Shown here: positions 15,866-37,727 of the stretch, in pieces | Layout: every line of letters starts with the position of its first letter | How positions within the stretch are numbered: the first letter of the stretch is position 1 | DNA from: Patescibacteria group bacterium | Lineage (GTDB): Bacteria; Patescibacteriota; Patescibacteriia; JACRDY01 | Length of the DNA: 64,000 nt | Assembly (NCBI GenBank): GCA_041650515.1 | Contig: JBAZLA010000002.1 | Location: forward strand, 103,659-167,658 | Direction of reading: 5' to 3' | Made by a program: the position numbers and the translations under genes | Notes under the pieces: model-generated | Database searches by the model: none | Told to the model about the DNA's origin: nothing | Seen by the model: only the letters and a program-made list of their open reading frames with translations

Positions 15866-15937
15866 CGCCCTCAGTAGGAATCGAACCTACATTACGAGAT
15901 CCGCAATCTCGCGTCCTATCCATTGAACGATGGGGGC
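15866..15937 (-). tRNA. tRNA-Arg (anticodon GCG as parsed)
   Basis: Minus-strand sequence GCCCCCATCGTTCAATGGATAGGACGCGAGATTGCGGATCTCGTAATGTAGGTTCGATTCCTACTGAGGGCG folds as cloverleaf: U8, A14, GG18-19, anticodon stem CGAGA/TCTCG, loop TTGCGGA (U33, G37), T-loop TTCGATT; 3' end abuts recG start. Confidence 0.7.
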
Positions 15938-16148: not shown

Positions 16149-16262
16149 AAACAAAATAAAGCAAAAAAATAGTCTCAGCTTCATTAGCTTTCCCGCCTAG
16201 ACTCGCGTCCGGCGAGGCTGGCCCAAGTATAGTAAAAAAGATAAATAAAATCAAGATTAAAG

Positions 16263-16751: not shown

Positions 16752-16755
16752 ATAA

Positions 16756-16784
16756 TTGACAGTTATTGTTAAAAATATTATATT
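16756..16784 (+). promoter_or_regulatory. Near-consensus sigma70 promoter for the tRNA-Ser pair
   Basis: TTGACA (16756-16761), 17-nt spacer, TATATT (16779-16784); tRNA-Ser starts at 16805. Confidence 0.6.
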
Positions 16785-16804
16785 AAAGCAGTCTTTTACC
16801 CAAT

Positions 16805-16897
16805 GGAAGGATGGCCGAGTGGCTGAAGGCAGCGGTTTGCTAAACCGTTATAGGGGTTTTATAGCTCCTATCGAGGGTTCGAATCCCTCTCCTTCCG
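16805..16897 (+). tRNA. tRNA-Ser (anticodon GCT)
   Basis: GGAAGGATGGCCGAGTGG... long variable arm, anticodon loop TTGCTAA, T-arm GGTTCGAATCC; 93 nt. Confidence 0.85.
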
Positions 16898-16931
16898 AAT
16901 TGATTTAAATAAGCCTGGTCCGCACCAAGGC

Positions 16932-17021
16932 GGAGGGATGGCTGAGTGGTTGAAGGCGACGGTCTTGAAAACCGTTGTTCACTTTAGAAGTGAATCGTGG
17001 GTTCGAATCCCACTCCCTCCG
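16932..17021 (+). tRNA. tRNA-Ser (anticodon TGA)
   Basis: GGAGGGATGGCTGAGTGG... long variable arm, anticodon loop CTTGAAA, T-arm GGTTCGAATCC; 90 nt. Confidence 0.85.
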
Positions 17022-17066
17022 CTCTGGCGCGAGATCATAGCAAAATCGTTACCCACCTCAGACAAC

Positions 17067-17720
17067 TCAACCATGGGCCAAAACTAATCCTTCAACTCTT
17101 CTAACTCCGGCCTGTTTTAAGACTTTAGCAGCCTGATTAAGCGTTTGGCCAGTGGTCACTACATCATCCACTAAAATTATATTTTCAATCTTCCCTAGAC
17201 TCGTTTTATTAACAGTAAACGCATCCAAAATATTTACCTCTCGCTCGGCTTTATTCAGACTCATCTGTGGCCGAGTGTTTTTAGTTTTTAATAAAATATC
17301 AGTACGAACATCTAGATTAATAGCCTCGCTGGCTTGGCGTAAAATCAGCTCAACTTGGTTAAAATCCCGCCAACGATGACGAAAACGATGTAACGGAATC
17401 GGCACAAAAACCCACTGACTCGACCAACGACTGGCTGGTTCGACCAAAATCTTACCCAAAGGATAAGCCAAGTCACTGATAAACTGATATTTTAACAAAT
17501 GAATCGCTTGTCTAATGACCGGGTTACCATAATCGGCAGCAATGACAATTTGATCAAGATAATCGCCACTCAGGCTTGCTCGACCAGACCAACGTTTAAT
17601 TCTGGCTAAACACCGCGGACAAAGCCAATCCTGCCCCTCGGTTTGGCAATCTAAACAGTAGATAGGAAACAATAAATCCTGAAAAAATCGCCAATATTTT
17701 TTTAACTTTGGTTGATCCAT
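17067..17720 (-). CDS. comFC: ComF family competence protein (ComFC-like phosphoribosyltransferase)
   Basis: N-terminal zinc ribbon CLDC...CPRC, C-terminal PRTase-type motif ILVDDVVTTGQTL. Confidence 0.8.
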   Translation of the reverse strand: MDQPKLKKYWRFFQDLLFPIYCLDCQTEGQDWLCPRCLARIKRWSGRASLSGDYLDQIVIAADYGNPVIRQAIHLLKYQFISDLAYPLGKILVEPASRWSSQWVFVPIPLHRFRHRWRDFNQVELILRQASEAINLDVRTDILLKTKNTRPQMSLNKAEREVNILDAFTVNKTSLGKIENIILVDDVVTTGQTLNQAAKVLKQAGVRRVEGLVLAHG

Positions 17721-17759
17721 GCCTTAAGCATAACCAACCAATGATTAAAAAAATCTAAA

Positions 17760-18395
17760 CTATAATCGCGGTGTCTGCCATTCTATCCAGGATACTAACC
17801 AACTATCCCCTTGCTTGGAAAATTTTAATAAAAGATCTTGGTAGGTTATTTCCGGACCGGCCGCGCTCTGCGCTGTCTTGATCCGCTGAGTCGAAACAAC
17901 GACGGTCGCACTGTTGTCTGTTAGCTCTTGGATCTTGGTAGCCAAACCTTGAGTAGTTATACCCATCACCACCGAATCTTTATTTTTGGCTTTTTCTTGG
18001 GTAATATACTTTTCGCTCCACGTTTTGACCTCAGTGGTCATAAACAGCTGTAGATCGCGAATATTTTCATAGTTATTAGTGGTTGAATAACTACCAAAAC
18101 GCGAAGCAAAGTCAGTTGCCAGCCGCTCTAGATTAATCTCTGATTGTTGTTGTTCATCCAATACTGGAGCAGTGTCTTTAGTAATCGCCGCCGGCTGATT
18201 ATCAGCATTAATCACTAACCGATTGCCTGATTTGACGGACAAACTACCATTCATGCTATTGCCAGCCTGGTTAGCCAACTGTTCCGAATTTGGTACTGCC
18301 TCACTCCTCAAAACCACATACAAAATAATTCCTAGAACGATCACCAGAACGGCGATGCCCGCCAAAATTATTTTACCTCGGTTAGATATTATCAT
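17760..18395 (-). CDS. N-terminally anchored extracytoplasmic protein adjacent to VirB4; possible VirB8-like component
   Basis: Single N-terminal TM helix, about 180-aa soluble domain; position directly downstream of VirB4 as for VirB8/PrgL-like proteins; no sequence motif confirmed. Confidence 0.4.
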   Translation of the reverse strand: MIISNRGKIILAGIAVLVIVLGIILYVVLRSEAVPNSEQLANQAGNSMNGSLSVKSGNRLVINADNQPAAITKDTAPVLDEQQQSEINLERLATDFASRFGSYSTTNNYENIRDLQLFMTTEVKTWSEKYITQEKAKNKDSVVMGITTQGLATKIQELTDNSATVVVSTQRIKTAQSAAGPEITYQDLLLKFSKQGDSWLVSWIEWQTPRL

Positions 18396-18413
18396 ATTTT
18401 TATTAATAAATTA

Positions 18414-20291
18414 TTAATTTGGTGTTGCGGTTGCGCCGATAGATTGGTCTTCTCCAGTAGCCACCCGCTCATCAAACTCCTTTTTGGCAGCCTCAATCTC
18501 TAACAGCTGCCTTGGATCAGAAGTAATTAATTGATCCTCGGTATATGAGGCAACCACCTTAATCGCCGCATGACGGTTACCAGCAAAAAAGATACCCTCG
18601 CCGACGCCACATTCCAAAAGTAAATACTTTTCGCCCTCGGTAAGCAGAAAAGTTTTTTGAATATGATCAATGGATGATGGCGACTGTTTCATTAATATCT
18701 GCAAAGCTGAATTATTAACAATCGCTTGGCCATAAGGTGACAACAAAAAGTCATTAACATCCTGCGTAATAGTAGTCACCCCTAAATAATATTTACGACA
18801 ACGTTTTACCAGGGCAAAAATAAACCGCGCCGAATCTTCATTCTGCATCAACCACCAGCCTTCGTCAATAACCAAAATTCTTTTCTTGCGCTCAGAACGG
18901 ACGACATTCCAAATATAATTAACTAGATTATAAATAGCTAAAGGCCGCAGCTCGTCCTCTAGATCACGGACAGAAAAACAAACTAACTGATTATTAGTAT
19001 CAACATTAGTCGGACTATTAAACAAACCAGAAAAGGTACCCTCGGTAAACTTCTTAAACCGAGTGGCCATATCCGATCCGCCTTCCATACCCTCTAAAAT
19101 ATCAACCAAGTCTTGAATCAATGGCGGCTCGATGTCTTTAAGATTAGAATCAGCTGTAATGTCTTTTTTGGCATAGGTTTCCAATAGCGCCCGATCTAAA
19201 AGAGCGTCTTCTTTAGCGCTAATTTTGCCTAAAATTAGACGACACAGGCCTTTAATGGTAATAACGGCGCTGCGGATAATATCCTCCGTTTTAAAGTCTT
19301 TCTCCACTGGTCGCGGTAGGTCAAAAGGATTAACCTTGCTCTCAGAAGCGAGCGAAATATTAATATAAGTTCCGCCCACTGCGTCAGAGAGGTGTTTATA
19401 CTCTTTTTCTGGGTCAATAACAATAATATCCACCCCCAACATCAGACTCCTAAGTATCTCCAGTTTGATCGCGTAGCTCTTGCCAGCACCCGAGGTGGCA
19501 AAAACCACCATATTAGCATTCTGCAAACTAAATCGGTCGAACAAAATCAAACTGTTATTATGCCGGTTGATACCGTACATAATGCCATTGTCCGAGCTCA
19601 ACTCAAAAGAAATAAAAGGAAAGGACGAGGCACAGGGGGAGGTATTCATGTTGAAGGTAATTGCTAGTTCATCCAGACCCATTGGCAAAGTTGAATTGAA
19701 TCCTTGTTCGGCCTGATACAGAACTTGGCGAGAATAAACTAAACGCGAACCAAAAATATCTTCCATATCTTCGGTCAGCTCATCCAGCTCTTTCAAACTA
19801 TCGGCATAAATAGTGACATATAAAGCATATTGAAAAAAATGCTCAACACCTTGGGTTAAATCGTCACGCAGCTTCTCGATATCACGCAAAGCGGTTTCTT
19901 TGATCGGGTCACGAGGAGCACCCTTGTCGCGATCAGCAAAAATTTCTGCTTCTAGGTTACCCACTCTTTTTTTGAGCTGCTTGAGAATAAGCGCTGCCCT
20001 GACCGGATAAAAGAAGATCGAAACATCTAAAGGGTGGTTAAAGTTGATAATCGGCGAAAACCAACCAATAGTGATATAACGGGGATAGCTAATCACAAAC
20101 ATCGTCCGGACATATTTGGTGCCCAGAATAATATAGCTCGGCTTTACCTCTAAAGCAGCGGGAGCGATTAGATCAATAATCGAAATTTCGCCTTCGCGAT
20201 AACGACGCTCTTCTTCAATCACCTCCTTATTCAAAACGACCTGCGCCTGCTGTTCATTTTCTGGTTGTTTCTTTTTAAAAAATATCGACAT
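18414..20291 (-). CDS. virB4: VirB4/TrbE/PrgJ-family conjugative T4SS ATPase, C-terminal ATPase part
   Basis: Walker A VVFATSGAGKSYAI, Walker B ILVIDEGWWLMQ, typical VirB4 C-terminal domain; ATG in frame 3 nt after the TAA of the upstream ORF. Confidence 0.85.
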   Translation of the reverse strand: MSIFFKKKQPENEQQAQVVLNKEVIEEERRYREGEISIIDLIAPAALEVKPSYIILGTKYVRTMFVISYPRYITIGWFSPIINFNHPLDVSIFFYPVRAALILKQLKKRVGNLEAEIFADRDKGAPRDPIKETALRDIEKLRDDLTQGVEHFFQYALYVTIYADSLKELDELTEDMEDIFGSRLVYSRQVLYQAEQGFNSTLPMGLDELAITFNMNTSPCASSFPFISFELSSDNGIMYGINRHNNSLILFDRFSLQNANMVVFATSGAGKSYAIKLEILRSLMLGVDIIVIDPEKEYKHLSDAVGGTYINISLASESKVNPFDLPRPVEKDFKTEDIIRSAVITIKGLCRLILGKISAKEDALLDRALLETYAKKDITADSNLKDIEPPLIQDLVDILEGMEGGSDMATRFKKFTEGTFSGLFNSPTNVDTNNQLVCFSVRDLEDELRPLAIYNLVNYIWNVVRSERKKRILVIDEGWWLMQNEDSARFIFALVKRCRKYYLGVTTITQDVNDFLLSPYGQAIVNNSALQILMKQSPSSIDHIQKTFLLTEGEKYLLLECGVGEGIFFAGNRHAAIKVVASYTEDQLITSDPRQLLEIEAAKKEFDERVATGEDQSIGATATPN

Positions 20292-20294
20292 AGC

Positions 20295-20993
20295 TTATTC
20301 TTCAACTTTAATTTTATCAACCTCTATCATTTTTTCCGACTCCGATAACTGCGGGTTATAAGAATTATAATACAACTCAATCAAACTCTGGGTGTCGAGC
20401 GGCGTGGCTTGCAGGCCCATACTATTCAAACCGCCAATCACGTGACTAACCCGCTGATATAAATCTCGACGTCTCTGATTAAACCTTTCTTCGCCGAGTT
20501 TGATCAAACTCGTGGGAGTAAACAGCTCCAATAGCCTTGACCAAAAACCGCGTTGCTTGTCCGATAAGGGATTATAAGGCACAACAATATAAAACTTCTT
20601 AGTCATAATATCGCCAATTTTGACCAGTTCGGCCACAAAATTACGGTAGTCTTTAATCTGCATTTTTAGCAGTTCATTAATCTGTTCTTTCTCAAATTTT
20701 TTTAACCTATCTAAATAATCATCAATATCAAACCGACGCGACTGGATAACAATCTGAATAGGAAAATCAATTGAATTTAAAAAGCTCATATAAGCGGTAA
20801 CAATCGCTTGTTGCTCATCAGACGACTTAAGCGCAAAATTAATGCTAGCGACCATAACAACCGCTCGCAAAGTTCCATCTTTAAGCACCACGCAGTCATT
20901 ACGAACCTCGGCAATCGGTACGTACTTCTTGGTTGACGGAGTAGATTTGTTTGTTGCTCGCTTACTCTTCATAGATTGATTTATAAATACCAC
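20295..20993 (-). CDS. VirB4 N-terminal domain (CagE/TrbE/VirB N-domain) encoded as separate ORF
   Basis: PIAEVRNDCVVLKDGTLRAVVMVASINFALKSSDEQQAI matches N-terminal region of VirB4 proteins; 232 + 625 aa equals normal VirB4 length; same frame as the ATPase ORF, separated only by TAA-GCT. Confidence 0.65.
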   Translation of the reverse strand: MVFINQSMKSKRATNKSTPSTKKYVPIAEVRNDCVVLKDGTLRAVVMVASINFALKSSDEQQAIVTAYMSFLNSIDFPIQIVIQSRRFDIDDYLDRLKKFEKEQINELLKMQIKDYRNFVAELVKIGDIMTKKFYIVVPYNPLSDKQRGFWSRLLELFTPTSLIKLGEERFNQRRRDLYQRVSHVIGGLNSMGLQATPLDTQSLIELYYNSYNPQLSESEKMIEVDKIKVEE

Positions 20994-21399
20994 CAGTATT
21001 AACTACCAACGATAGCTCCTCCAGGTGTGAACTCGACATTAATTTTTTGGGCGCAATTTTTCTGACCGAACTAACCGCCACTGGACGCTGTAAAATTTCT
21101 CTAATCTCTTGATCGGTTAAACTTTTATCCCAAACTTTAAGCTTCGGTTTTTTAAATGTCTCGATAACATTAAGTAAAAAATAATGAAACGGTCGCCCAT
21201 TAATCTTAGCAAAAGCAATAGTGCCAAAGATAGCAAAAATCAACACCGTCGACACAACAAAAGTCCAAAAATCAAACAACTTATAACAAACAAAAATCAG
21301 CATCAAGGCAACAATACTAATAATAAACTGACGGACGGTAATCGGACCAAACACCCGCGGCTCAACCTCGATAAATTGGGGAACAAGAAACTGTTCCAT
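20962..21399 (-). CDS. PrgI/VirB3-like small membrane protein
   Basis: FGPITVRQFIISIVALMLIF followed by a second TM helix, matching the GLTxRQ + two-TM signature of PrgI-family VirB3 analogues; overlaps VirB4-N start. Confidence 0.6.
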   Translation of the reverse strand: MEQFLVPQFIEVEPRVFGPITVRQFIISIVALMLIFVCYKLFDFWTFVVSTVLIFAIFGTIAFAKINGRPFHYFLLNVIETFKKPKLKVWDKSLTDQEIREILQRPVAVSSVRKIAPKKLMSSSHLEELSLVVNTGGIYKSIYEE

Positions 21400-21418
21400 A
21401 ACAAATATTTAAAATGCC

Positions 21419-22675
21419 CTAATATTCTAACATTTTATTCAATTTAACTAAAGCCCGCCACTCGGCCGTGTCTAGGGTCGGTAGTCCTTGTTTTTGTCGA
21501 TTACTAATAATCGCTTCTACCGACACGCCCTGCTCCATGCTGTCTTTGCCTAATGATAAATAAGTCCGATAAACTTCACTTTGTTTCCAGGCTTCGATTC
21601 CCATGATCCGCTTAGAAAAAGAGTCAGCTTCTAACAAATCAATCTTTTCCCTGATCCTTATAATTGCTCGGTCTGGGTCTCGATCTAACTGCTTAAAATC
21701 AATCAATCTCAAGGTGCGTAACTCATCAACTGGTCCAATCAACCGAGTTGGAATTTTAACGTCGGTAATTTTTTCGCCTTTAGCCAAAGATACACCAACT
21801 GGTGGCTTAGACTGATTAACTGACGGTTCAACCTTTTGATCAGATTCGACTACTTTTTTAGGTCTTAACCAAGCCAAAAATTTTTTCTTGGTCGGCATAA
21901 TCTTTGACTTTTGAGGGGCAATAAACGGTTTAACCTCTTTAGAAATATATCGATCCGACTCAGCCTTTTTAACTGACATTTTATTCTCTGCCGCTTGGGG
22001 TTTAGCGGTCAAAATTTCGGTGACGCTTTTAACAATCGGCTTAGCCGCAGTAATAAGCGGCTTGGCAACTACCGGCTTAATATCAACAACTTTCGGCGCT
22101 GGGTTGAGTTGATTAATCGACGATACTGGCGGAATTTTGACCGACGATGGAACATTGGCTTTAGTTTTAATCACTACTGGTGGCGGAGGAGCGATCTCGT
22201 GGTCTAGCTCAGACTGAGAAAAAATATGCACTTGATCATTTGGTGAGCTACGCTCAATCTTTGGCAATACAGGGGCGGCTGATCGTTGGGTGGGTAAAAT
22301 AGCACCTTGTCCCCGACTATTAACGGTCGACTGTTTTCTAAATAGATTGATAATTTGATCAGCCACCTGACTAGTTAAACCCAAACCACCGACTGTTACC
22401 TCTTTAATTAAAACGTCTTTAGTCTGTAGATCGGTCCGAATACCCTTAGCACCAGCCAAAATAGCATTTTTAAAACGACGATCCAAAACTTCGTCCTCGA
22501 ATCGTAAATTAAGTTTTTGACTAATCTCGTTACTTAGACGTGAATATTGATCTTCAGGTTGATTAATCGAACTAACCAACGACCCAGCTTGGCTCCCCAA
22601 AACTTTGTAACCACCGGTTGATTCTTTAACTAGAATTTCGTCTTGGTCGGAAATGTTTTTTTGATTATTAATCAT
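21419..22675 (-). CDS. Hypothetical protein with central Pro/Lys/Val-rich region
   Basis: 418-aa ORF, no TM, PPPPVVIKTKANVPSSVKIPPVSS low-complexity centre, conserved-looking C-terminal domain; in T4SS-like cluster. Confidence 0.5.
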   Translation of the reverse strand: MINNQKNISDQDEILVKESTGGYKVLGSQAGSLVSSINQPEDQYSRLSNEISQKLNLRFEDEVLDRRFKNAILAGAKGIRTDLQTKDVLIKEVTVGGLGLTSQVADQIINLFRKQSTVNSRGQGAILPTQRSAAPVLPKIERSSPNDQVHIFSQSELDHEIAPPPPVVIKTKANVPSSVKIPPVSSINQLNPAPKVVDIKPVVAKPLITAAKPIVKSVTEILTAKPQAAENKMSVKKAESDRYISKEVKPFIAPQKSKIMPTKKKFLAWLRPKKVVESDQKVEPSVNQSKPPVGVSLAKGEKITDVKIPTRLIGPVDELRTLRLIDFKQLDRDPDRAIIRIREKIDLLEADSFSKRIMGIEAWKQSEVYRTYLSLGKDSMEQGVSVEAIISNRQKQGLPTLDTAEWRALVKLNKMLEY

Positions 22676-22713
22676 AGAAAAATCTTTTACCTAATAACCC
22701 TCGCGGGTTAGAT

Positions 22714-23895
22714 CTACTTTAAACCAGCTTGTTTTTTTAATATTTCAGCTTTATCAATTTTTTCCCAAGGGAAACAACCGTCTTTGGGCGCTCGGCCAAA
22801 ATGACCATAGGTAGCGGTTTTTTTATAAATCGGCCGTAATAAATCAAGACTGGTAATAATCCCCCGCGGCGTCAATTCAAAATTATTTTTTATCAATTCT
22901 AACAGTTTGGTCTCTTCCACTTTGCCAGTACCAAAGGTATTAACCATAATAGAAACTGGCTCAGGATAGCCAATAGCATAGGCTAGCTGAACTTCACAAC
23001 GATTCGCTAACCCCGCCGCTACTATATTCTTGGCAATGTAGCGCGCCATATAAGCACCAGAGCGATCTTGTTTGTTAGGGCCCTTACCCGAAAAACAACC
23101 ACCACCGTGCGCCCCAACCCCGCCATAAGTATCAACAATAATCTTACGACCAGTCAGGCCAGTATCGCCATGAGGACCACCAATGACAAAACGTCCGGTT
23201 TCGTTGATATAATAATGAGTCTGGTCATCAAGATATTTACCGCCGATCGGCTTAATCACTTTTTCAATAATTGACTCGCGTAGATCTTCCAGCTCAATTT
23301 CTGGATCATGCTGAGCGGCAATAACTACGGCCTCAATTCTGGTAGGTAAATTATCAACATACTCAACTGTTACTTGCGATTTACCATCCGGCCGTAAAAA
23401 GGGCAATTCACCATTATGACGCACTTCAGCTAGCTTTTTAGTCAACTGGTGAGCCAAAACGATCGGCAAGGGCATTAACTCTGGAGTTTCACTAGTAGCA
23501 TAACCAAACATCATTCCCTGATCCCCCGCTCCCATCTCTTGGTGTAAACCTCCGCCCACTTGCTCACCTTGAGCGATATCCGGGCTTTGTTCATGAATAA
23601 CATTAATTACGGCGCAGCTTTTATAATCAATGCCATAATCAGCATTGTCATAACCAATCTCTTTAAGCGTATCACGAACAATCGTCTGAATATCAACGTA
23701 AGTCTGAGTAGTCACCTCGCCGCCGACTAAAACCATGCCGGTCGTAGTAAAACATTCACAGCAACAATGACCCCCTGGGTCCTCTTTTAAAATCGCATCC
23801 AGCACAGCGTCAGAGATTTGATCGCAGATTTTGTCTGGATGCCCTTCGGTTACTGATTCTGATGTAAATAAATGTTTCCCACTCGGTCCCCGCAT
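22714..23895 (-). CDS. metK: S-adenosylmethionine synthetase
   Basis: [47 protein letters not shown] signature motifs. Confidence 0.92.
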
Positions 23896-23904
23896 AACTA
23901 ATAA

Positions 23905-23977
23905 TTATTTGTTATTTGTTATTTGTTATTTGATGGAGGTTAAAACTTTCAAATACCAGATACCAAATACCAAATAA
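23905..23977. repeat. Four tandem TTATTTG heptamers and, 17 nt away, four tandem CAAATA(C/A) heptamers (inverted orientation) in metK leader
   Basis: 23905-23932 (TTATTTG)x4; 23950-23977 CAAATAC CAGATAC CAAATAC CAAATAA; arms are imperfect reverse complements (about 25/29). Confidence 0.7.
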
Positions 23978-23979
23978 TT

Positions 23980-25272: not shown

Positions 25273-25288
25273 AAATTAAATATCTCTA

Positions 25289-28285: not shown

Positions 28286-28315
28286 CTGTAGATAAATTAA
28301 TTATCTTACTGCTGA

Positions 28316-31300
28316 TTAATAATCGGCTTTAATTACCGCAATCACACCGTTGTAGCTGGTCCAAACTTTATTCTGATCGATAAATGCTGACGCTGAACAA
28401 TTGTGTGTGCCAGAACCAGCGCCTAGCCAATAATCTTCGACACAAGCTTTGCCATTGCCGGGAGTTGTCGCCCCACAGTCAGCACCGCAGATTCCCCAGT
28501 TATCAATCACCTGCACCCGCGGCTTGTAAACGCAACAAGGATTATGATTTTCTGGCAGGTCCTCTAAACCAACAACATGCGCATAGCAGTCATCCCAATA
28601 ATAAAGAGCACCGTCATCAACTATACAATCCGGATTATAAATATAAAGATTATCAAACGACCAAGGTGAAGCAACACAAGCATCACCAGAACTACCAAAA
28701 TTGGTACCATCACAACTTGATCGATGATTTTGGTAAGAGTCACCTAGCTGTCCCAAACCCAAACTACCTAGGTCCGCTTCATAATCCTTACCGCCCCAAT
28801 CAATATTTATATATCGTAATGGCATCTGACTACCATTAGAGTTATAAGCATAGAAGGAAAGGCTGGCCCAATACTGGCCGTAGCCAACCTCTGGCTCTGC
28901 CGCGTCGCCTTGAAAATAATTAACCGAAATACTCCGAGCACTGTGCTCTTTCCAACCGCCGATCGTTTCATCAAAAACTGCGGCCCTAACCACTGGCGCC
29001 TGACCCATTGTCGCCCGATTATCCCAGCCATAGAGCGAGAATGTCGGCGCAAAAGCTATTCCACCGGATGTTGGAATACCTAGATAAGAAAAAGGAGAAC
29101 TCATGGCAAATAGCTTAGAAATTTTATCATCAATAATTGCCATACGACCAGTAGGCGATAATAAATCATTAGCAGTCATTATGCCAGGAGGATTAAGACC
29201 AAGACAATAAGCACCATCACCGCAATCAGCGGCCTCAGAACAATCACTATCACTATAGTAATCAAAACCGTCACCCCCAAAACAAGTTGCTTTACCACAA
29301 TAAACAAGTAACGGAACACCAGGACGTGGGTGACAACTATAAGGTGATCCCCCTTCTCGCTGATCTGCTCCTTCTGGCGCTCTCTGTATATACCATCCTC
29401 CCAGAGCAGCAACAGAATCTAAATCGGCTTTGCCAAAGGGTTCATTATTCTGAGGATAACGATATTCTAATGTAGGGACATCAAAATCTTCAAACTCTTT
29501 TAGGTAGTTGGTGTTGGCGGCATGAATATAAGTCGAATCAACCTCTTGCGTTACCTGCACAGCTATCTCGCAATATTCTTTAAAAACAAATACTGGATTA
29601 AGTGCGATAGCACCATTCCAACCATTAACCCCACCTTTAGACTCACAATCGTTTGCTGGCCCTCCCGCCCCATCTTTATGTTCAACCTTAATCTGAATAT
29701 ATTCCAAATCATCACCTGACCAATTAATAACAACTTCTAAGCAGATATTACTCTGCCTTGTCGGATTAGAAAATAAAACTTTTTCCATATTGGGCGCATA
29801 AAACCAATCACCATTGGGTAGGTAAACATAAGCTTGGTAAGCATACAGTGGTGATCCTCCCTCCGATACCGCTATGTTCCACCAAGCATCATAAGCAGAC
29901 GTGTTGTCATTATAATACTTATCGTCTGGTTTATAATAAATAACTCGATCTTCATAATCATTAAAGAAAACGATAGCTCCATCACCCTCGACACCAGTAA
30001 AAATATTTTGAGGTGTTGGTCTAACTGGACAACCAGCATCCCCTAAACAACCGATTTCATCTAAAATTAGAGCCTTCACTTCACTTTTTCTAATTTTTCG
30101 GCCGCTCGGTTTAAGAGTGTATTTATAACCACAATGAGTATCATAGCTAGTAGTTTCTGGAAAAACACTTAAAGCGTACTTATATTTACTCCAATCCCAA
30201 CCTGCATCGCCGTGATGGCCACTCTCACCTAAATACCTCTCATATCGACACTCGCTCCAAGAAACATCGCCAGAAGCATAGGAGATATTGTAAGGTGGAT
30301 CTTCCATCCAGGTATCACTTTCGGTCTTAGCCCACTGGTTGACATATGGAGCATTACCCTTTTCTTGCAAACAATAAAGTTGGTCTTCCGACGGTTGCCA
30401 ACCAGCGGCTGGAACACTATTAAAGACATCAGGCTCATTAGCCACCAAATCCAAGGGCATCCATAATAAGCAGGCTAATTTATTTGGATCAGCATTAACC
30501 GCTTTTCTTCTATCGCTTTGTAAACAATACCCTCGCCAACCAACATATAAATCTTGTCGACTAGGTTTGACACAAACATCATTATCTGAAGGTGTTGCCC
30601 CCACTGGGTTACCACCACTATCATAATAATTACCTTGATCCGGTGACAAATACCCAGGTTCATTGATTTCAGCCATACATTCTTGATCATTAGCACAAGA
30701 ATCACCAGCCGCCTTACCCGATGTTTCGTCGACTTCAGTACAATAATGATCACTATTTGTGTCTAGATCAAAATAAGCGGTGGGGCCAGAATCTCCCTGC
30801 CATTTTTCATAAAAACAGTCACAATCATTACCATCAATTTCAGAACAGAAATTAGATCCCGCAAAAGATGAATTACCTTTCAAAGTTTCGGTACCAGGGA
30901 AGGGCGAGGTAGTTTCTGGATAACCACGACAACTTTTAGTGGCTTTACCAATAACCAACCCACTAGAATTTTCACCCAAGCCCAAACTCTTCCCAGTATC
31001 AGAAAGATGGGTCAAATAATAATCACCAGAACTTTTATCGCACTTACCGCTCGAACAATCACTATTATTTATACAACTTTGATATGGCGATACAGTACAT
31101 TTACCGAATGGCACCTGCTGCAGGCTCCAAGTCGGATAGAGCCAAGGCACCGAGTAACCAGAATAATCATAACCAGCCCAACCCAGATCGCGCTCCGTAT
31201 ATTTATCTATACTCAGATTATCATAAGCGCTAAATCCCGGCTCAGCACTGATCGGCTTAGCACTAATACATTGTAGGGTCGAACTAGTTCCCTGATCGAA

Positions 31301-34300
31301 ATTTTGGAAGCGAGAACAAGCTGTTGTGGACATACATAGCTGACGATAAGACCCAGAATTAGCATCAAAAACATCAAACGATCGACTACAATCAACCCAT
31401 TCAGCGCAGACCCGGTCGCGCCGGACTTTTAAGATCTGGTTAGTATTGTTTTTATAAATTTTACTTATAGCCATCGGCGGACTACTGCCGGGTATCACCT
31501 CAAAATATTGACATTCAGTTGGCGTTGGCGTCATGCTACAATCGATCGGCCCAACCAACGAATTACTCTGGTTCTCACTACTAATATAAGTTGCATCGCT
31601 GCTCCATTCCACCGGCGGTAACCAATTGCCATCACCGTTTGCCTGAGCCGCGGCCCAATCAGTCTTGTTATAATCAGCAAACAAAACACAACCTTCTTTA
31701 AGCGAAACCTGGCCATTGCAGCTCTGGGTGTCCAAAGCATTATTGTCTAAATAATAATACTCATTATTACCTTGTTCGGCGCTGCCATTAGGATCAATAA
31801 ACTTAGTGCAGCTGCTATATTGCGACGGACACAGCTGGGCCCAATATTTCTGACTGCTGCTGGTCTGGTTGTCTTCGCCGCAGGTATAATTTACATAAGT
31901 ATTTGTCCCCGGATCCCAAACTTTTATCGGACAAATGACATCAGCGCCCTTCTGGTACCAACAAAATTCTTGCTGGCCGGTTAGCTGCCGATATTCACAA
32001 ACCTTATCGCGCGGATCTTTAAAATAGATTGGATTAAGATTACCGCCGCCGTTATATTCTTCACAGCCAAAACCATTAGTAGTACATAAATCAGTAGTAT
32101 ACCGAGTCGGCTGGTTGAGGAAATAAACTAAATTTTCCGAACCGCCTTGTTCGGTATTATAGTCAATAACCGTATCATCCTGAGCTAGCCGCGGGAGAGC
32201 AAACTTAGTGCAGCCCTTGCTCTGTGACTGGCAACTAAAGTCGGGGTTATTCACGGCGTAAATAAACTGGTCTCCAGTGACACTTACTTCATCCGCAGAG
32301 CCGTCGCTAGCGGCCATCATCCAACCTGGATAATCAGCATACTGTTCGGTCAGGGTTAAATTGTAACGACAAGTCCGCTCGCCAGCGTTAACCTGACAAG
32401 CCAGTACTTTAATCGTTGGAGCATAGGTCCCTGGTGTGTAAGTACAATCGCAAGTCGTGGCTGGCGGAGTCGGGATACAAGTATTAGCCGGCAGAGTACA
32501 AACTCGGCTAAAGTCTTGCTTAAACGGCGAGGGCGAATTGTAAGTATTAATCAGCGCTTCGCAGCCCACTACCCCCTCCGAACAGATCCGAGTAAACGAC
32601 TTGAGATATTGAACATTGGCATTGCTGTCTTGGTAGGCTTCGCAACCCAGCATGTACTGCGGCGCGGCGGCCCCGGAATGATTTTGGTCGCAGCTAGCCG
32701 GCGTGGACCACGAATTTTGGACCAAAAATTGAACATCGCGAACTTCTTCTAGCTGGACGTTGTCGACATAAAATTTCTTACCTTGCGCTGAGTAGAATAA
32801 TAGTTTGTCATTGGCATTAGTCCAATTAATAAACACCGGACCCAGACGATAGAATCGCCAATCAGTAGCTAGATCGTTTTGATAGCTAAAATAATTAGCT
32901 GGCTGATCTTCTGGCGAACCGACATTAATTCCCGAGAATCTAATTTTGAGAGTATTAGCCACCTGCTGATCTGATTTGGCCCAAACGGTCAGAATGTAAG
33001 CTCGGCCCGGTTGGACTTTATCAGTCATATCCCAAGCCAGACCCGCTGATCCTACTCCGCTGGTAAACGAATGGCCGCCGACCGTAAAAGCTTCTGACGA
33101 TAAAACGCCATAGTAACCAGCATAAGGGCCAATCGGATCGGGAATCCACTCATCCAAAAGGCTGCCTTCAAACCCTTCAAAACCCACTACAAAGCCACTG
33201 CCAGAAAAATTACCCCGATATTCCTGACAGCCCGACTGGCCACAAGGCACGCTATTAGCCGGGTTAGCCAGAAAAATACACTGATTATTATAACTAGTAA
33301 ATTCTAAACCACTGCCTGAGCACTGGCCAGGTAATAGATTATAGCAAATACCGTTTTGCCAAAAACCGCCCTGGCTGTTGCAAGAAGCTAAATTCAGGCC
33401 TTCGCACTGAGTAACAAAACCGCCAGACTTAGCACAATCCGAGATGCCGTACCAATTACTCATCCGATAATTATGACAATCCTGCGTACACAATACTGTA
33501 TCGGCGTATAAACGATATCTAATCTGACCCGTAGCCGAATAGAACTGACGACAGTTGGGGGTATTATACGGATCATAAAATGGATCACCCGGATTTTGAG
33601 CATAAATCGGCTCACAGCTAGCTGGATCACCAGGAACCGCTGGCACCCCAGGAATTGAATAAACCGGATTTCTGATCACGAACGGTGCGTCATGATCAGT
33701 GGCGCTTCTCTTTAATTGATAAAGTTTTAATTGATAGCCAGTTCGGTCGCTGCCTTCCCAAGTATAAAAAGCCGCGCAATCCTCATCAGCGCTACCCGGG
33801 TTAGGTTTCTGACAACGACGCAAAAATGAATAATTTTCCAAACTTTCACCGCCCGCTTCGGCGCTATCTAGATTAGTAAACTCTTCACAGCCAGAATCGT
33901 TAGCTGTACAGCTCTGAGCCGTTGGCGCCATAAAATATAAGGGCACCAGTTCTGACTGGAATCTAGAAGCCATGCGTTTATAAGTCCGATAGCCAACGCA
34001 TTCAGCCGGACAATAATCCTCAGGCTTAACAATACCCGGGACAATAATACCGCTAGCTAAAGCCGTATATTTTTGGCAGCCAACATCATCTGGACCGCAA
34101 CTTTTGGCATAATTGCTACATTCGGCTGGGTCGCTCGGCGTACCCGGACAATTAAGATAATCCGGCTTAATCTTGAGATAAGTCGTGTTAATTGCCCCAT
34201 AATCTTTATAGCCGGAATCGGTGTTAGCTTCTTCTAATTGAACAGCGTCAAATAAACAACCAGCCGTAGCGAGCCAAGTCGCCGGCTGAAAAGCCAGACC

Positions 34301-36625
34301 AATTGATTGATCCGAGACCGAACTTGGAAAAGTATAAGTAAAATAATAACTATTCCATTGCGTCCCGTCCCAAATACTAGGATCTTGAATTAGTTCACTC
34401 AACGCAATATATTCTGTCGTGCCGCTCAGTGGCCCAAAATGAACCTTGGTGCTATTCTGATCACAATTTTTGGCCGCAAAAGACAGAGTAAACGTCCGGC
34501 TGCCCAAGGCATAGCCGGTCGGAATAGTTTGGCTAATCAAGCCACCGCCAGTTGGTATTAATATTGATGTTTGGCCAACTAAAGCATCGGTGCTGGCCGA
34601 GGTTTTTAAAACAGTCGCGCTGGTCTTCCAGCCAGGAAAATAATTGGCTACAGAATTGACTGTCAAATAATCTTCAAAACTGCCATTTTTGACTAGATTA
34701 GTACCCGAGCTAGGATAAGTTTTAATCAATTCGGTACAACCGACATCATCGCTAGAACAAGCCTGAACATCGCGATCAAAATAAAACCGTGGTTCTTGGC
34801 CTAGCATATCAGCGCCCAACCACTGGCCAGCCGCGTTTTTGACCCCGGCGTACCATTTACAGCCTTTATTATTACTGTCGCAACCTTGATAGTTTAAACT
34901 GGTCTTAAGAAAACTAGCTTCCTGACCGTCGATTATTTTAACAAAACTCTGACAAGTGGCATAATTAGACGGACATTCATCACCATCAAACCACCAGATA
35001 TTCCGCTCGCGGGTGCAGTGCCCCCAAGCTTTACAACTGCCATCTTCGCTCTCCAAAACACAGTCCTGACTCTCGGCGCACCACTCTTCTCGCGTACCGC
35101 CGCCAATATTAATTGGACCCGGCACCCGAGCCGTACATTTTTGCTGCGGCGCTTTGAGCACCCAATTAGGATCAACTAGGCCGTAAAACTGAGAACTCGG
35201 GTTATTAAAGTCGCTAATTAAAGAATTTAAATTATAACTACTACCGCCAAAAGTCGATTTGCCGCCAATAAGTTCTGCCGCAAATTCCCAACCCGCTGGC
35301 ACAATTCGAGCTTTACGCAACCGCCGAATGGCACTCATCGAGTAGCCCTCTTCTGGTCCAGGCTCATTAGCGCCCTGCGGCGAGGAATAACCAAATGACC
35401 AATTACCATTCAATAAATCTTGATCAATCGCCTCTTGGACAGTCAGTTTATTATAAATCGCATCAGCAAAATCTTGATTAATCGTACAATTATTAAAACC
35501 AGGATTTTCTGCTGGACAAGCCACAAATTCGGCCACGATATCATACTCGCCGCCGATTTTAACTTTGGTTTGTAATAAGTCGGCAAAACTGCTGTCAGCT
35601 GACTCGGCAATATAAGTGCCATAAGGTGTACCGCCGCCGCCGCTACCGCCATCCGGCCGGGTGAGCTCGGTACAAAAATCAAAACCGTTACCTGGGATAT
35701 CGCAAACATCTTTAACTCCCCACAGACCTTGCAGCCATTTACTCATTAGCTCGGCGACTAAAGTATTTAAAAATTGATCAACAAAAGGAATTAATAACGA
35801 GCCGGTCATAATCGCGCCTATTTCACTAAGGCCCGCCTTGGTAAAGGGATCTTCTATCAACCCCTTCTCAACGTATTTTTTGACAGCATCGCGCGAACTC
35901 TTTTTGTAGCCACTTAGCGGATCCACCACATCATGAAAATCAGCATTAAGCTTAAGCGGGTCAAACTCGGTTTTGACTTTTTCATTTTTGACTCTTTCCA
36001 ACTCCCAAGTGCTGGAAATAAAAGCGCCGGCATCACTCTGGGTGGGTGAAAAAGAAGCTTGCGCTCGTAGCAAAATCTCGCCGCTCTGAAATTCAGCGCC
36101 CAGCTTATTCCAATTATCTTGAATCTCCCGCCAGTTACAAATCGGCGTTGGCTCTTGTGATTCAAACAAGGCAATCCCCAACATAAAACGAATATTGGGG
36201 TTGGGATTACACAGAATACTGGCATCGCCAAAAAAGTTTTCCGAAAAAGAACCAATAAACTCGCCAGCGGCCGACTCCGACGCGTCCAGCAGAATTGCTT
36301 TTTGGGTTCGCCATTCAGTCAGCGACTGCAGACCATTCTTGCCTTCGGCGACCGCCTTAGCTAGGCTGACCGCCAATTTACGCGAGAGCATCTGGCCGGA
36401 GCGAATAATTGAATAGCGTAACGAAGCCAAAATTTCATCCCAAATGGTGGTTTTAATCTCTTTTTTGACTATTATCCCTTCCAGAGTCGGATAAGAAGTT
36501 ACCTCAACCGGGGCAGCCTCAACCCTTTGCGGCATTAAAAAAGCAGGAACCGCCACGCCAAACAAAAAAGCTATCAAAACCAAGCCGGTAATTATCTTTC
36601 TCTGTTTCCCGCTTTTACTTAACAT
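28316..36625 (-). CDS. Giant (2769 aa) secreted Cys/Trp/Tyr/Asn-rich surface protein
   Basis: N-terminal signal anchor ITGLVLIAFLFGVAVPAFLMPQRVEA; uninterrupted 8.3-kb ORF, hundreds of Cys in CxxC/CxC contexts; no enzymatic motif recognised. Confidence 0.7.
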   Translation of the reverse strand: MLSKSGKQRKIITGLVLIAFLFGVAVPAFLMPQRVEAAPVEVTSYPTLEGIIVKKEIKTTIWDEILASLRYSIIRSGQMLSRKLAVSLAKAVAEGKNGLQSLTEWRTQKAILLDASESAAGEFIGSFSENFFGDASILCNPNPNIRFMLGIALFESQEPTPICNWREIQDNWNKLGAEFQSGEILLRAQASFSPTQSDAGAFISSTWELERVKNEKVKTEFDPLKLNADFHDVVDPLSGYKKSSRDAVKKYVEKGLIEDPFTKAGLSEIGAIMTGSLLIPFVDQFLNTLVAELMSKWLQGLWGVKDVCDIPGNGFDFCTELTRPDGGSGGGGTPYGTYIAESADSSFADLLQTKVKIGGEYDIVAEFVACPAENPGFNNCTINQDFADAIYNKLTVQEAIDQDLLNGNWSFGYSSPQGANEPGPEEGYSMSAIRRLRKARIVPAGWEFAAELIGGKSTFGGSSYNLNSLISDFNNPSSQFYGLVDPNWVLKAPQQKCTARVPGPINIGGGTREEWCAESQDCVLESEDGSCKAWGHCTRERNIWWFDGDECPSNYATCQSFVKIIDGQEASFLKTSLNYQGCDSNNKGCKWYAGVKNAAGQWLGADMLGQEPRFYFDRDVQACSSDDVGCTELIKTYPSSGTNLVKNGSFEDYLTVNSVANYFPGWKTSATVLKTSASTDALVGQTSILIPTGGGLISQTIPTGYALGSRTFTLSFAAKNCDQNSTKVHFGPLSGTTEYIALSELIQDPSIWDGTQWNSYYFTYTFPSSVSDQSIGLAFQPATWLATAGCLFDAVQLEEANTDSGYKDYGAINTTYLKIKPDYLNCPGTPSDPAECSNYAKSCGPDDVGCQKYTALASGIIVPGIVKPEDYCPAECVGYRTYKRMASRFQSELVPLYFMAPTAQSCTANDSGCEEFTNLDSAEAGGESLENYSFLRRCQKPNPGSADEDCAAFYTWEGSDRTGYQLKLYQLKRSATDHDAPFVIRNPVYSIPGVPAVPGDPASCEPIYAQNPGDPFYDPYNTPNCRQFYSATGQIRYRLYADTVLCTQDCHNYRMSNWYGISDCAKSGGFVTQCEGLNLASCNSQGGFWQNGICYNLLPGQCSGSGLEFTSYNNQCIFLANPANSVPCGQSGCQEYRGNFSGSGFVVGFEGFEGSLLDEWIPDPIGPYAGYYGVLSSEAFTVGGHSFTSGVGSAGLAWDMTDKVQPGRAYILTVWAKSDQQVANTLKIRFSGINVGSPEDQPANYFSYQNDLATDWRFYRLGPVFINWTNANDKLLFYSAQGKKFYVDNVQLEEVRDVQFLVQNSWSTPASCDQNHSGAAAPQYMLGCEAYQDSNANVQYLKSFTRICSEGVVGCEALINTYNSPSPFKQDFSRVCTLPANTCIPTPPATTCDCTYTPGTYAPTIKVLACQVNAGERTCRYNLTLTEQYADYPGWMMAASDGSADEVSVTGDQFIYAVNNPDFSCQSQSKGCTKFALPRLAQDDTVIDYNTEQGGSENLVYFLNQPTRYTTDLCTTNGFGCEEYNGGGNLNPIYFKDPRDKVCEYRQLTGQQEFCWYQKGADVICPIKVWDPGTNTYVNYTCGEDNQTSSSQKYWAQLCPSQYSSCTKFIDPNGSAEQGNNEYYYLDNNALDTQSCNGQVSLKEGCVLFADYNKTDWAAAQANGDGNWLPPVEWSSDATYISSENQSNSLVGPIDCSMTPTPTECQYFEVIPGSSPPMAISKIYKNNTNQILKVRRDRVCAEWVDCSRSFDVFDANSGSYRQLCMSTTACSRFQNFDQGTSSTLQCISAKPISAEPGFSAYDNLSIDKYTERDLGWAGYDYSGYSVPWLYPTWSLQQVPFGKCTVSPYQSCINNSDCSSGKCDKSSGDYYLTHLSDTGKSLGLGENSSGLVIGKATKSCRGYPETTSPFPGTETLKGNSSFAGSNFCSEIDGNDCDCFYEKWQGDSGPTAYFDLDTNSDHYCTEVDETSGKAAGDSCANDQECMAEINEPGYLSPDQGNYYDSGGNPVGATPSDNDVCVKPSRQDLYVGWRGYCLQSDRRKAVNADPNKLACLLWMPLDLVANEPDVFNSVPAAGWQPSEDQLYCLQEKGNAPYVNQWAKTESDTWMEDPPYNISYASGDVSWSECRYERYLGESGHHGDAGWDWSKYKYALSVFPETTSYDTHCGYKYTLKPSGRKIRKSEVKALILDEIGCLGDAGCPVRPTPQNIFTGVEGDGAIVFFNDYEDRVIYYKPDDKYYNDNTSAYDAWWNIAVSEGGSPLYAYQAYVYLPNGDWFYAPNMEKVLFSNPTRQSNICLEVVINWSGDDLEYIQIKVEHKDGAGGPANDCESKGGVNGWNGAIALNPVFVFKEYCEIAVQVTQEVDSTYIHAANTNYLKEFEDFDVPTLEYRYPQNNEPFGKADLDSVAALGGWYIQRAPEGADQREGGSPYSCHPRPGVPLLVYCGKATCFGGDGFDYYSDSDCSEAADCGDGAYCLGLNPPGIMTANDLLSPTGRMAIIDDKISKLFAMSSPFSYLGIPTSGGIAFAPTFSLYGWDNRATMGQAPVVRAAVFDETIGGWKEHSARSISVNYFQGDAAEPEVGYGQYWASLSFYAYNSNGSQMPLRYINIDWGGKDYEADLGSLGLGQLGDSYQNHRSSCDGTNFGSSGDACVASPWSFDNLYIYNPDCIVDDGALYYWDDCYAHVVGLEDLPENHNPCCVYKPRVQVIDNWGICGADCGATTPGNGKACVEDYWLGAGSGTHNCSASAFIDQNKVWTSYNGVIAVIKADY

Positions 36626-36674
36626 ATTTATTTTACTTAATTATAAAATAAATCTTAAAAATAGACAAAAACTA

Positions 36675-37727
36675 TTAGCTCTTACCACCCAGAGCACCCA
36701 ACAGCATATCCTTTAGAGTGGCTTCATTATATTTATCCAAAATACCTTGGCTAAAACCAGCATTTTTGAGCAGGGTTTTAACTTCTTCGGGCGACATTTT
36801 CTGAATCTCTTCATAAAGCTGCGGATTAGTCACTGTACCACTCGTTGTCTGACTTTTAGTCCCATTCTGACTAATGGACTGCTTATACATTGCTAATAGC
36901 TCGGCATCAGTAAACTGACTTAATACTTCAGCGGAGACACCAGCCGCTTTGAGCGCGTCTTTAAGCTGGGCCGAGGTAATACTATTAGGATCAACATTAG
37001 TCAGATCCGCTGTTGTGCCAGACGCACTAGCGCCGGTAGTAGTGGTGCCGCTAGCGTCGGTGGTCGTCCCCTCGGTCTGAGCTAAAGCGGTTTGATAGAG
37101 CTGCAATAACTCGGCATCACTAACCTGGCTAAGAGCCGACTCGGAAATACCAGAATCAATTAGAATTTTTCTAATATCCTCAATAGTCTGCGGTGTTTCG
37201 ACATCTTCGTAATCAGTAATAACGTCGCTGCTCAAACCCACTCCAGTCGATTGCAACGTGGCGGCCGCGGCCGTACCATAACAATCCCGGCCTTCATAGC
37301 ACACTGGATCAGTACCCTGAGCCAATTCTTGACTATCGTTAAGACCGTCGGAATCGCTATCTTCTAAATAGGGACTGGTTTGATAAACATACAGCTCATC
37401 AAAATCAGACACCCCGTCACCATCGGTATCTTTATTCTGCAGCGCCAGTAGGTCGTCTGCTTCATTTAAATTAATATTCAATGTTTCTCCACTGCTAGCC
37501 AGCTCAAAAGGTAAATTGATATGACGCGAAAACTGCCAGCTACCTAGGCCGACAGCAATAAAAGTAATAGAAAGCATCAAAATAAATAGACTCTTTTCAC
37601 TTCGAGTCAACTTTTTATTTTTGTTTTCCAAAACCGGGATTTGATCCTCAAAATCATTGGGCCAATTTTCCTGGTTTTTAGGCATAAGCCAATATTTAAA
37701 ATTTTTGAAATCGATTACTAATTTCAA
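36675..37727 (-). CDS. Membrane-anchored protein with thrombospondin-type-3-like Ca-binding motifs and repeated helical SxxxLSQxxDAELLxxY units
   Basis: TM FILMLSITFIAVGLGSW; DTDGDGVSDFDE and DSDSDGLNDSQE motifs; three helical repeats; Thr/Ser/Gly-rich linker. Confidence 0.55.
   Translation of the reverse strand: MKLVIDFKNFKYWLMPKNQENWPNDFEDQIPVLENKNKKLTRSEKSLFILMLSITFIAVGLGSWQFSRHINLPFELASSGETLNINLNEADDLLALQNKDTDGDGVSDFDELYVYQTSPYLEDSDSDGLNDSQELAQGTDPVCYEGRDCYGTAAAATLQSTGVGLSSDVITDYEDVETPQTIEDIRKILIDSGISESALSQVSDAELLQLYQTALAQTEGTTTDASGTTTTGASASGTTADLTNVDPNSITSAQLKDALKAAGVSAEVLSQFTDAELLAMYKQSISQNGTKSQTTSGTVTNPQLYEEIQKMSPEEVKTLLKNAGFSQGILDKYNEATLKDMLLGALGGKS

Follow-up and report, generated by a model that had tools for sequence, protein, structure and literature searches.

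The type IV secretion systems (T4SSs) of the Patescibacteria are the closest described relatives of the system analysed here, a gene cluster at positions 17067–37727 on the minus strand of a 64-kb stretch of DNA (in the following, the window; contig JBAZLA010000002.1 of assembly GCA_041650515.1, forward-strand positions 103,659 to 167,658) from a Patescibacteria group bacterium. Quinonero-Coronel et al. 2025 (PMC12102498) surveyed 3035 Patescibacteria genomes and described a monophyletic VirB4 clade nested in MPF-FATA. Of the components associated with it, TrsD was the most abundant; PrgI and VirB6 occurred as well, VirB8 homologues were present almost only in ABY1, and arrays of VirB2-like pilins were observed. 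Relaxases are reported as nearly absent and type IV coupling proteins (T4CPs) as rarely near virB4, while ksgA is placed near virB4 and, in ABY1, comF, recG, and radA within the locus. A review (PMC12857230) treats these systems as a new T4SS subgroup. Transposon sequencing (Tn-seq) by Wang et al. 2023 (PMC10633639) showed that the T4SS and the pilins are essential for epibiotic growth of Southlakia epibionticum; none of ComEC, ComF, and DprA was a fitness gene, and transformation needed ComEC. In a 2026 preprint, tubular structures at the parasite–host interface were considered as possible T4SS pili, and acquisition of host RNA was proposed.

Set against these systems, the cluster in the window is most probably a chromosomal, vertically inherited T4SS of the Patescibacteria clade, derived from monoderm MPF-FATA conjugation machinery, in the ABY1 arrangement, and would serve macromolecule exchange on contact with a host rather than plasmid conjugation. 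The original prediction for this DNA had described a monoderm-type T4SS without a relaxase or coupling protein nearby, matching proposals for candidate phyla radiation (CPR) bacteria, and that description stands, with a chromosomal setting. In minus-strand order, the cluster comprises genes for a TSP3 protein and a Cys-rich giant, followed by virB6, h430, metK, h418, prgI, trsD, virB4, the virB8-like gene, and comF; gene content, order, and coordinates were confirmed as originally given.

Core translocon

The locus encodes a complete monoderm membrane translocon. Besides a two-gene VirB4 and a VirB6 of extended length, it includes PrgI/VirB3 and a scaffold with the VirB8 fold, all from the following genes:

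17760–18395, minus strand: VirB8-like bitopic protein of 211 residues, assigned by AlphaFold2 (AF2) fold and position
18414–20291, minus strand: VirB4 ATPase of 625 residues, assigned by NCBIfam conju_CD1110 and PDB entry 4AG5
20295–20993, minus strand: TrsD-like protein of 232 residues, the detached N-terminal part of VirB4, assigned by profile matches
20962–21399, minus strand: PrgI/VirB3-like small membrane protein, assigned by PF12666 (31.8 bits; gathering score 27)
25289–28285, minus strand: extended VirB6/TrbL-like polytopic membrane protein of 998 residues, assigned by TrbL PF04610

VirB4 passes the cut-off of conju_CD1110 (346 against 325 bits, model positions 183–730 of 752) and also matches P-loop_TraG (1e-26), AAA_10, and DUF87, which identifies it as an ATPase of the MPF-FATA type. 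Residues 233–590 match the VirB4 C-terminal domain in PDB entry 4AG5 (3.8e-49), and the Walker A (ATSGAGKS) and Walker B (ILVIDE) motifs are intact. The 232-residue open reading frame (ORF) preceding it matches the NCBIfam models TrsD (E 1.6e-7) and VirB4_plasma (positions 91–233, E 4e-13), as well as VirB4_CagE (positions 3–175) and CD1110 (positions 4–81), with all NCBIfam scores below the curated cut-offs. Since this ORF covers only the N-terminal ends of VirB4 models, the trsD and virB4 ORFs together constitute one VirB4, in agreement with the VirB4 N-domain and VirB4 ATPase initially proposed. TraC_F_IV matches 28 of 45 trsD orthologues, and the true start of trsD is probably the ATG at 20972.

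The small PrgI protein carries the GPITVRQ motif from residue 18, followed by two hydrophobic helices, and its assignment as PrgI/VirB3 is confirmed by the PF12666 score. As for VirB6, the full-length sequence reaches a sub-threshold 20.6 bits with TrbL, whereas a scan limited to residues 1–360 gives 30.2 bits and so exceeds the gathering score of 25.9, which supports the earlier VirB6 assignment. A match to the Mbov_0396 ICE membrane protein family was also obtained (E 1.6e-4). The protein has about 6–7 transmembrane segments within its first 300 residues, and continues as a hydrophilic, K/E-rich tail of about 700 residues.

The VirB8-like protein gave no sequence-level family match in Pfam, in NCBIfam, or as a profile against PDB sequences. 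Its AF2 model, based on 47 homologues, has a mean predicted local distance difference test (pLDDT) score of 83.9, with values above 90 for the domain formed by residues 80–211, and shows a transmembrane helix at the N-terminus that is joined by a disordered linker to an NTF2-like domain of three helices on a four-stranded sheet. When the model was compared with the PDB using Foldseek, CagV ranked first (E 3.4e-5, TM 0.71), and further matches included IcmL-like proteins, Rickettsia VirB8, PrgL (pCF10), TraE, Brucella VirB8, TrwG (R388 cryo-EM), TcpC, and Agrobacterium VirB8. The confident model and the VirB8 homologues at the top of the Foldseek ranking uphold, at the level of fold, what had been a tentative VirB8 assignment. 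Alignments of the VirB8-like protein, TrsD, h418, and VirB6 used as profiles against PDB sequences returned no meaningful matches.

Conservation in related loci

Relatives were collected by a scan of species-representative genomes, which yielded 80 loci with a VirB4 that is 69.5–78% identical to that of the window. These loci are labelled Falkowbacteria, Buchananbacteria, Magasanikbacteria, and Kerfeldbacteria, which we take to be members of the GTDB class ABY1. Synteny was compared across the 80 loci by tblastn of the window proteins, and the core virB6 ... h418-prgI-trsD-virB4-virB8 proved to be conserved: trsD was found in 78/80 loci, prgI and h418 in 77/80 each, the VirB8-like gene in 69/80, directly after virB4, and virB6 in 52/80, many loci being incomplete. 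The counts for the flanking genes are 47/80 for comF, 39/80 for recG, and about 35/80 for the pilin paralogues. VirB4 has the highest median identity of the neighbourhood (72.5%, compared with 60.9% for metK and 52.7% for recG), which fits a strongly selected core function. More than 8000 homologues of VirB4 are present in the protein collection searched, and among the matches listed the nearest relatives with a source name are all Patescibacteria, namely Falkowbacteria, Buchananbacteria, Kerfeldbacteria, and Magasanikbacteria, at 70–82% identity; judged by these sequence matches, membership of VirB4 in the Patescibacteria clade is very likely.

The division of VirB4 into two genes calls for a separate assessment. 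In the window, trsD and virB4 are in the same frame with TAA-GCT alone between them, and the housekeeping gene metK interrupts the cluster. Together, these features could be taken to mean that the locus is a decaying, non-functional remnant with a VirB4 split by an in-frame TAA. The two-gene state is, however, universal in the relatives and variable in detail: trsD and virB4 are in frame in only 18/78, the distance between them varies from an overlap of 8 nt (−8) to a spacer of 450 nt, and each of the three stop codons is represented. From this variation in frame and spacer it follows that the two-gene VirB4 is ancestral and genuine. Furthermore, the best VirB4 homologues listed are all about 600–670 residues long, the ATPase motifs are preserved, VirB4 remains 70–78% identical across the class, and every ORF is intact. 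A remnant thus has almost no probability left, and the pseudogene reading is already refuted. Programmed readthrough or pseudogenisation at the trsD-TAA-GCT-ATG-virB4 junction was likewise considered as a candidate event, and was ruled out by the same 18/78 count and the variable spacers.

A separate observation concerns the junction itself. In L015, L025, L030, L021, L065, and L001 (9542–9995) palindromic repeats, for example TTAGCTTTTAGC...GCTAAAAGCTA, have inserted into the short spacer between trsD and virB4, which suggests that miniature mobile elements target this site. The 450-nt insert in L001 may encode a small ORF of its own, as a candidate.

Pilin array

Besides the minus-strand core, the window contains an array of pilin genes on the opposite strand, headed by two additional genes:

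3831–6324, plus strand: pA and pB, at the head of the pilin array, assigned by tblastn and topology
6331–10994, plus strand: four VirB2-like pilin paralogues, assigned by PF18895 matches, hairpin, and synteny

In all four paralogues the hairpin is matched by the PF18895 T4SS_pilin family, with 17.5–25.4 bits against a gathering score of 26.6. The paralogues share a nearly identical two-helix hairpin, YIGAIYRFGVSAASVLAIVMIIIGGFIWLTSAGN...GALIGLVLALGSY, and each is built from a signal peptide, a Cys-rich region with 16–20 Cys, and a variable C-terminal domain. In one paralogue, this last part is an M15 peptidase domain (Peptidase_M15_4, 4.3e-19), and another carries a 3D domain (7.6e-4), so that in two paralogues a pilin appears, from the domain matches, to be fused to a cell-wall hydrolase. 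The original prediction had suggested that these hairpin-hydrolase paralogues could be parts of the machinery. The array very probably does belong to the T4SS, and corresponds to the VirB2-like arrays reported for Patescibacteria; in 24 related loci it is contiguous with the core, directly after the VirB8-like gene and on the same strand.

With respect to gene boundaries, the mechanical call of the fourth pilin ORF (9552–10994, plus strand) overlaps the third by 137 nt, and the public annotation has a protein of 442 residues (L081 9067–10395). The signal peptide starts MLNKYLK, and therefore the true start of the fourth pilin lies downstream of 9552. At the head of the array, pA is an acidic, low-complexity protein with a C-terminal hydrophobic segment, and was detected in 5 loci. 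pB carries an anchor at its N-terminus and is part of the array in 32/80 loci (35–53% identity); faint hints of propeller-type families make a beta-propeller possible.

Genomic context and the question of a conjugative element

A further possibility is that the cluster is part of an integrative and conjugative element (ICE), with relaxase, coupling protein, and integrase located outside the window. The best model for VirB4, CD1110, is from a CTn2-type ICE, and tRNA genes, which are common integration sites, adjoin comF. An IS200-like Y1 HUH protein is encoded at 11572–12168. On the other hand, the same core with the same housekeeping neighbours recurs in 80 species-level genomes, and the cluster has a GC content of 0.38–0.47, like its flanks, with no compositional island or other atypical composition. 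A Pfam scan of each window ORF of at least 100 residues detected no MOB relaxase, VirD4/TcpA coupling protein, or integrase. The original prediction had named a relaxase and VirD4 with an oriT immediately outside the window as a finding that would overturn it; on the left, the adjoining 7 kb (Logan contig) contain housekeeping genes only, with no relaxase, T4CP, or integrase. These negatives together span −17 to +44 kb relative to virB4 plus the 7 kb on the left. The single HUH protein of the window is an IS200-like Y1 transposase rather than a relaxase, and its gene is missing from all 80 related loci. In the survey, relaxases were near virB4 in only 15 genomes (PMC12102498). The conjugative-element reading is thereby largely refuted, and an ICE at this position is highly improbable.

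comF and DNA uptake

The position of comF at the end of the cluster led the original prediction to propose DNA uptake as one possible role. The genes in question are:

17067–17720, minus strand: ComF/ComFC-family protein, assigned by TIGR00201 and Pribosyltran
13758–16751, minus strand: h162 (a small membrane protein), tRNA-Arg, and recG, the last with RecG wedge, DEAD, and Helicase_C domain matches

The ComF protein matches TIGR00201 (E 5.6e-23, 82 bits, below the cut-off of 233) and Pribosyltran (35.6 bits), and contains two CxxC motifs (CLDC/CPRC) and the phosphoribosyltransferase motif IILVDDVVTTGQT. By analogy with the Ced and ComB importers, the T4SS could be a DNA-uptake machine, with ComFC and RecG as its partners in bringing in DNA of the host or the environment. 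A gap of 39 nt separates comF from the VirB8-like gene upstream, recG follows after a few more genes, and 'functional coordination' in ABY1 is suggested in PMC12102498. As in ComB and Ced, no relaxase or T4CP is present, and VirB4 has a weak match to CedB (E 1.2e-12).

The gene order in the relatives does not favour this role. Two arrangements are distinguished among the 70 classifiable loci. In the first, which is that of the window, comF follows the VirB8-like gene (46 loci), and where the locus extends far enough h162 and recG come next, an order (comF-h162-recG) seen in about 30 loci. In the second (24 loci, including 5/5 labelled Kerfeldbacteria), the pilin array takes the position of comF, and recG and h162 are inverted and located beyond the array. 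Even at a relaxed E-value, comF was found beside recG/h162 in only one locus of this second type, L062. The simplest reading is that the block [pilin array ... mpg, recG, h162, comF] was inverted between the two arrangements, a model that is based mainly on the orientation of recG and h162. With the second arrangement in view, the adjacency of comF looks like a product of block inversion; it varies within the system, to which the pilin array, by contrast, very probably belongs. The shared orientation with comF noted in the original prediction is real, but carries little information because the entire coding run 11572–63928, a stretch of 50 kb, is on the minus strand.

The gene content points in the same direction. 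ComEC, ComEA, DprA, and ComFA were not detected in the Pfam scan of window ORFs of at least 100 residues, which leaves the ComF-family gene as the only representative of a Com natural-transformation system. The CedB and CedD models reach 47 and 19 bits, with cut-offs of 700 and 600, respectively, and the window has no CedA-like genes. In S. epibionticum, finally, the T4SS is essential; the cell can do without ComEC, ComF, or DprA, and ComEC is needed for transformation (PMC10633639). With adjacency in 46/70 loci only, no other com gene, and genetics from Saccharibacteria that speak against it, the case for DNA uptake built on comFC adjacency is weak, and we regard this role as quite unlikely. 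comF, like metK, is a neighbour through gene-order history and not a demonstrated component.

Accessory and passenger genes

Upstream of prgI, five further genes belong to the co-directional run:

36675–37727, minus strand: 350-residue bitopic membrane protein, first gene of the run, assigned by TSP3_bac PF18884
28316–36625, minus strand: Cys-rich secreted or anchored giant of 2769 residues, directly upstream of virB6, assigned by composition and topology
23980–25272, minus strand: h430, a cytoplasmic orphan of 430 residues with no transmembrane segment
22714–23895, minus strand: metK (S-adenosylmethionine synthetase), between h430 and h418, all three domains matched
21419–22675, minus strand: h418, a conserved cytoplasmic orphan, directly upstream of prgI in 77/80 loci

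The AF2 model of h418 contains two helical domains, at residues 40–122 and 312–418, with pLDDT above 90, separated by a disordered, Pro-rich linker of about 190 residues. No match was found in Pfam, NCBIfam, PDB sequences, or by Foldseek against the PDB, and the h418 orthologues gave nothing consistent against Pfam. The family is large, with 2618 members at E ≤ 1e-3 in a profile search of 1.84 billion cluster representatives. h430, which has no Pfam, NCBIfam, or PDB match, was identified in 33/80 loci at 21–39% identity. In four loci, residues ~66–229 of h430 (its N-terminal half) and the complete h418 orthologue form one in-frame fusion, with the h430 part at the N-terminus (ORFs L027 7301–8776, L046 6877–8778, L076 6004–8070, and L077 1575–3467), and the two proteins are therefore functionally linked. 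h430 was not detectable at the N-terminus of the long (600–700 residues) h418-family representatives P0193 and P0195.

metK is complete, with three S-AdoMet synthetase domains (E 2e-44 to 2.5e-65). Its presence inside the cluster had been noted as unusual. It is indeed embedded there, and given the fusions seen elsewhere it has split a pair that is a single gene in other lineages, but it is no feature of the system: metK occupies the site between h430 and h418 in 15/80 loci, which are the closest relatives, all of the comF-following type and mostly labelled Falkowbacteria/Buchananbacteria. metK is thus a housekeeping passenger that was inserted in a sub-lineage.

The giant has an N-terminal hydrophobic segment (residues 11–29) and 108 Cys, corresponding to 3.9% of its residues. 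A weak CBM_4_9 match is its sole family match, and the comparison with PDB sequences gave none. A large Cys-rich ORF (3–8% Cys) ends just upstream of virB6 in 19/36 assessable relatives, and tblastn detects homology to the giant in 10 loci at 25–37% identity, which makes it a recurrent but not universal neighbour of virB6. From its sequence, it is a candidate surface adhesin or substrate. The TSP3 protein, more than 10 kb from virB4, scores 31.4 bits with TSP3_bac PF18884 against a gathering score of 25 (thrombospondin-type-3 Ca-binding repeats), and has a hydrophobic segment at residues 46–64 and three short helical repeats.

Taken further, these genes could mean that the ABY1 T4SS has an undescribed accessory module of its own, in which h430/h418 would replace the missing coupling protein as a substrate-recruiting platform at the VirB4/VirB6 base, and the giant would be a pilus-associated adhesin or the main secreted substrate. 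We consider this extended proposal rather unlikely in its entirety.

Proposed mode of action

In the preferred reading, a Patescibacteria-clade T4SS for exchange with a host, a VirB4 hexamer would dock on PrgI, VirB6, and VirB8 in the membrane and power the assembly of a VirB2-type pilus or conduit. The pilin-fused hydrolases would cut a path for the conduit through the cell's own wall, and perhaps that of the host. The assembled machine could then serve contact-dependent exchange of macromolecules with the host bacterium that the cell lives on, and not plasmid conjugation. h430 and h418 would be lineage-specific accessories that may recruit substrate, with the Cys-rich giant as a possible surface adhesin or substrate.

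Several points weigh against this reading. The function is inferred, and Patescibacteria T4SSs have no known substrate. The pilin assignments have Pfam scores that all fall just under the gathering score. The identity of VirB8 is based on the predicted fold, topology, and position only, other NTF2-like folds (ARC6 and the CaMKII hub) are interspersed among its Foldseek matches, and homology as opposed to convergence of fold is not proven. According to PMC12102498, VirD4-like genes are found far from virB4 in many Patescibacteria, and the region searched here comprises the window and the 7 kb on its left. The essentiality data, finally, come from Saccharibacteria, a different class (PMC10633639).

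The T4SS of Patescibacteria is near-universal in a huge radiation and essential in the one species tested. To the published ABY1 instances of this system, the present locus adds another, taken from a metagenome-assembled genome of an uncultivated organism. Its value is that of a reference locus, with a complete VirB2/3/4/6/8 set and a clear VirB8-fold protein, and it helps to discount the adjacency of comF as functional evidence. h418, together with h430, represents a large unannotated family that travels with the core, and is a sensible target for structural and interaction studies.

Flanking regions

The cluster is flanked by the housekeeping genes ksgA, tsaC, prfA/B, and recG, and by tRNAs. 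A promoter and terminator scan of positions 16000–35900 gave counts no higher than shuffled sequences, so that operon boundaries could not be called. The sole near-consensus sigma-70-like promoter in the scanned region (16756–16784, plus strand; TTGACA, 17-nt spacing, TATATT) is located just upstream of two plus-strand tRNA-Ser genes that face the comF end, and transcription of the minus-strand cluster must probably stop right after comF. A search of the whole window against Rfam, with a more sensitive pass on 11500–13800, found nothing beyond three tRNAs.

The Y1 gene (11572–12168, minus strand) is of the IS200-like HUH transposase type, with a PF01797 score of 23.7 bits, just above the gathering score. 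It adjoins about 1.6 kb (12169–13757) with no credible ORF, where the GC content rises to 0.66 from a background near 0.42. Rfam gave no family for this stretch, and the 80 related loci gave just two matches to it, both short and weak. The stretch resembles an insertion, specific to this genome, between mpg and recG.

On the other side of the cluster, a second giant surface protein of 3187 residues is encoded at 41706–51269 (minus strand), in which FG-GAP repeats are combined with Kre9/KNH Ig-like domains, DUF4215, and a CarboxypepD_reg domain. Near this giant lies the gene of an S8 subtilase that also has FG-GAP repeats (57422–59512, minus strand), and the two are separated by a block of glycosyltransferase and GtrA genes. 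A DUF559/REase_MTES_1575 endonuclease-like gene (61741–62115, minus strand) is found amid housekeeping genes.

Comparison with known systems

Among T4SS-related machines, Helicobacter ComB and archaeal Ced resemble the present system in that they have no relaxase and that a role in DNA uptake was proposed from gene neighbourhood. They differ in their specific components: none of those characteristic of CedA or ComB is present here, CedB is far below its cut-off, and the genetics of Saccharibacteria separate the T4SS from competence.

The order VirB6 ... VirB3-(TrsD)-VirB4-VirB8-like mirrors PrgH-PrgI-PrgJ-(PrgK)-PrgL and TrsC-TrsD-TrsE. With the conjugative T4SSs of MPF-FATA (pGO1/pSK41, pCF10, and C. 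difficile CTn2 CD1110), the locus shares a VirB4 that passes the CD1110 cut-off and the lack of outer-membrane parts, and with pGO1 TrsD/TrsE it shares the two-gene VirB4. Unlike these systems, the cluster in the window has no relaxase, oriT, T4CP, or PrgB-type adhesin, and is not on a mobile element. Conversely, it is accompanied by VirB2-like pilins, which are lacking in the Gram-positive systems. The hydrolase is a separate protein of PrgK/TraG type in those systems, whereas here the hydrolase domains are fused to pilins.

The T4SS of Southlakia epibionticum ML1 (SEML1_0006–0019) is similar in being Gram-positive-like, with a pilin array, hydrolases, and no recognisable relaxase or coupling protein in the cluster. 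It belongs to a different class, Saccharimonadia, no structural VirB8 homologue was reported for it, as opposed to the VirB8-fold protein found here, and essentiality was tested only in that species.

The closest correspondence is with the Patescibacteria-clade T4SS as described in the available parts of PMC12102498. The two have in common an FATA-type VirB4, a separate TrsD-like gene, PrgI/VirB3, VirB6, a VirB8-like protein, and, very probably, VirB2-like arrays, as well as the absence of a nearby relaxase or T4CP and a chromosomal context of ksgA, comF, and recG. Nothing essential differs from that description, and the system itself, including the comF/recG context in ABY1, is already published there, as are all main points of the original interpretation. 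What the present locus and its relatives add is incremental: a near-universal VirB8-fold protein in ABY1, the h418 orphan and its pairing and fusion with h430, the recurrent Cys-rich giant, the metK insertion, and the two arrangements.

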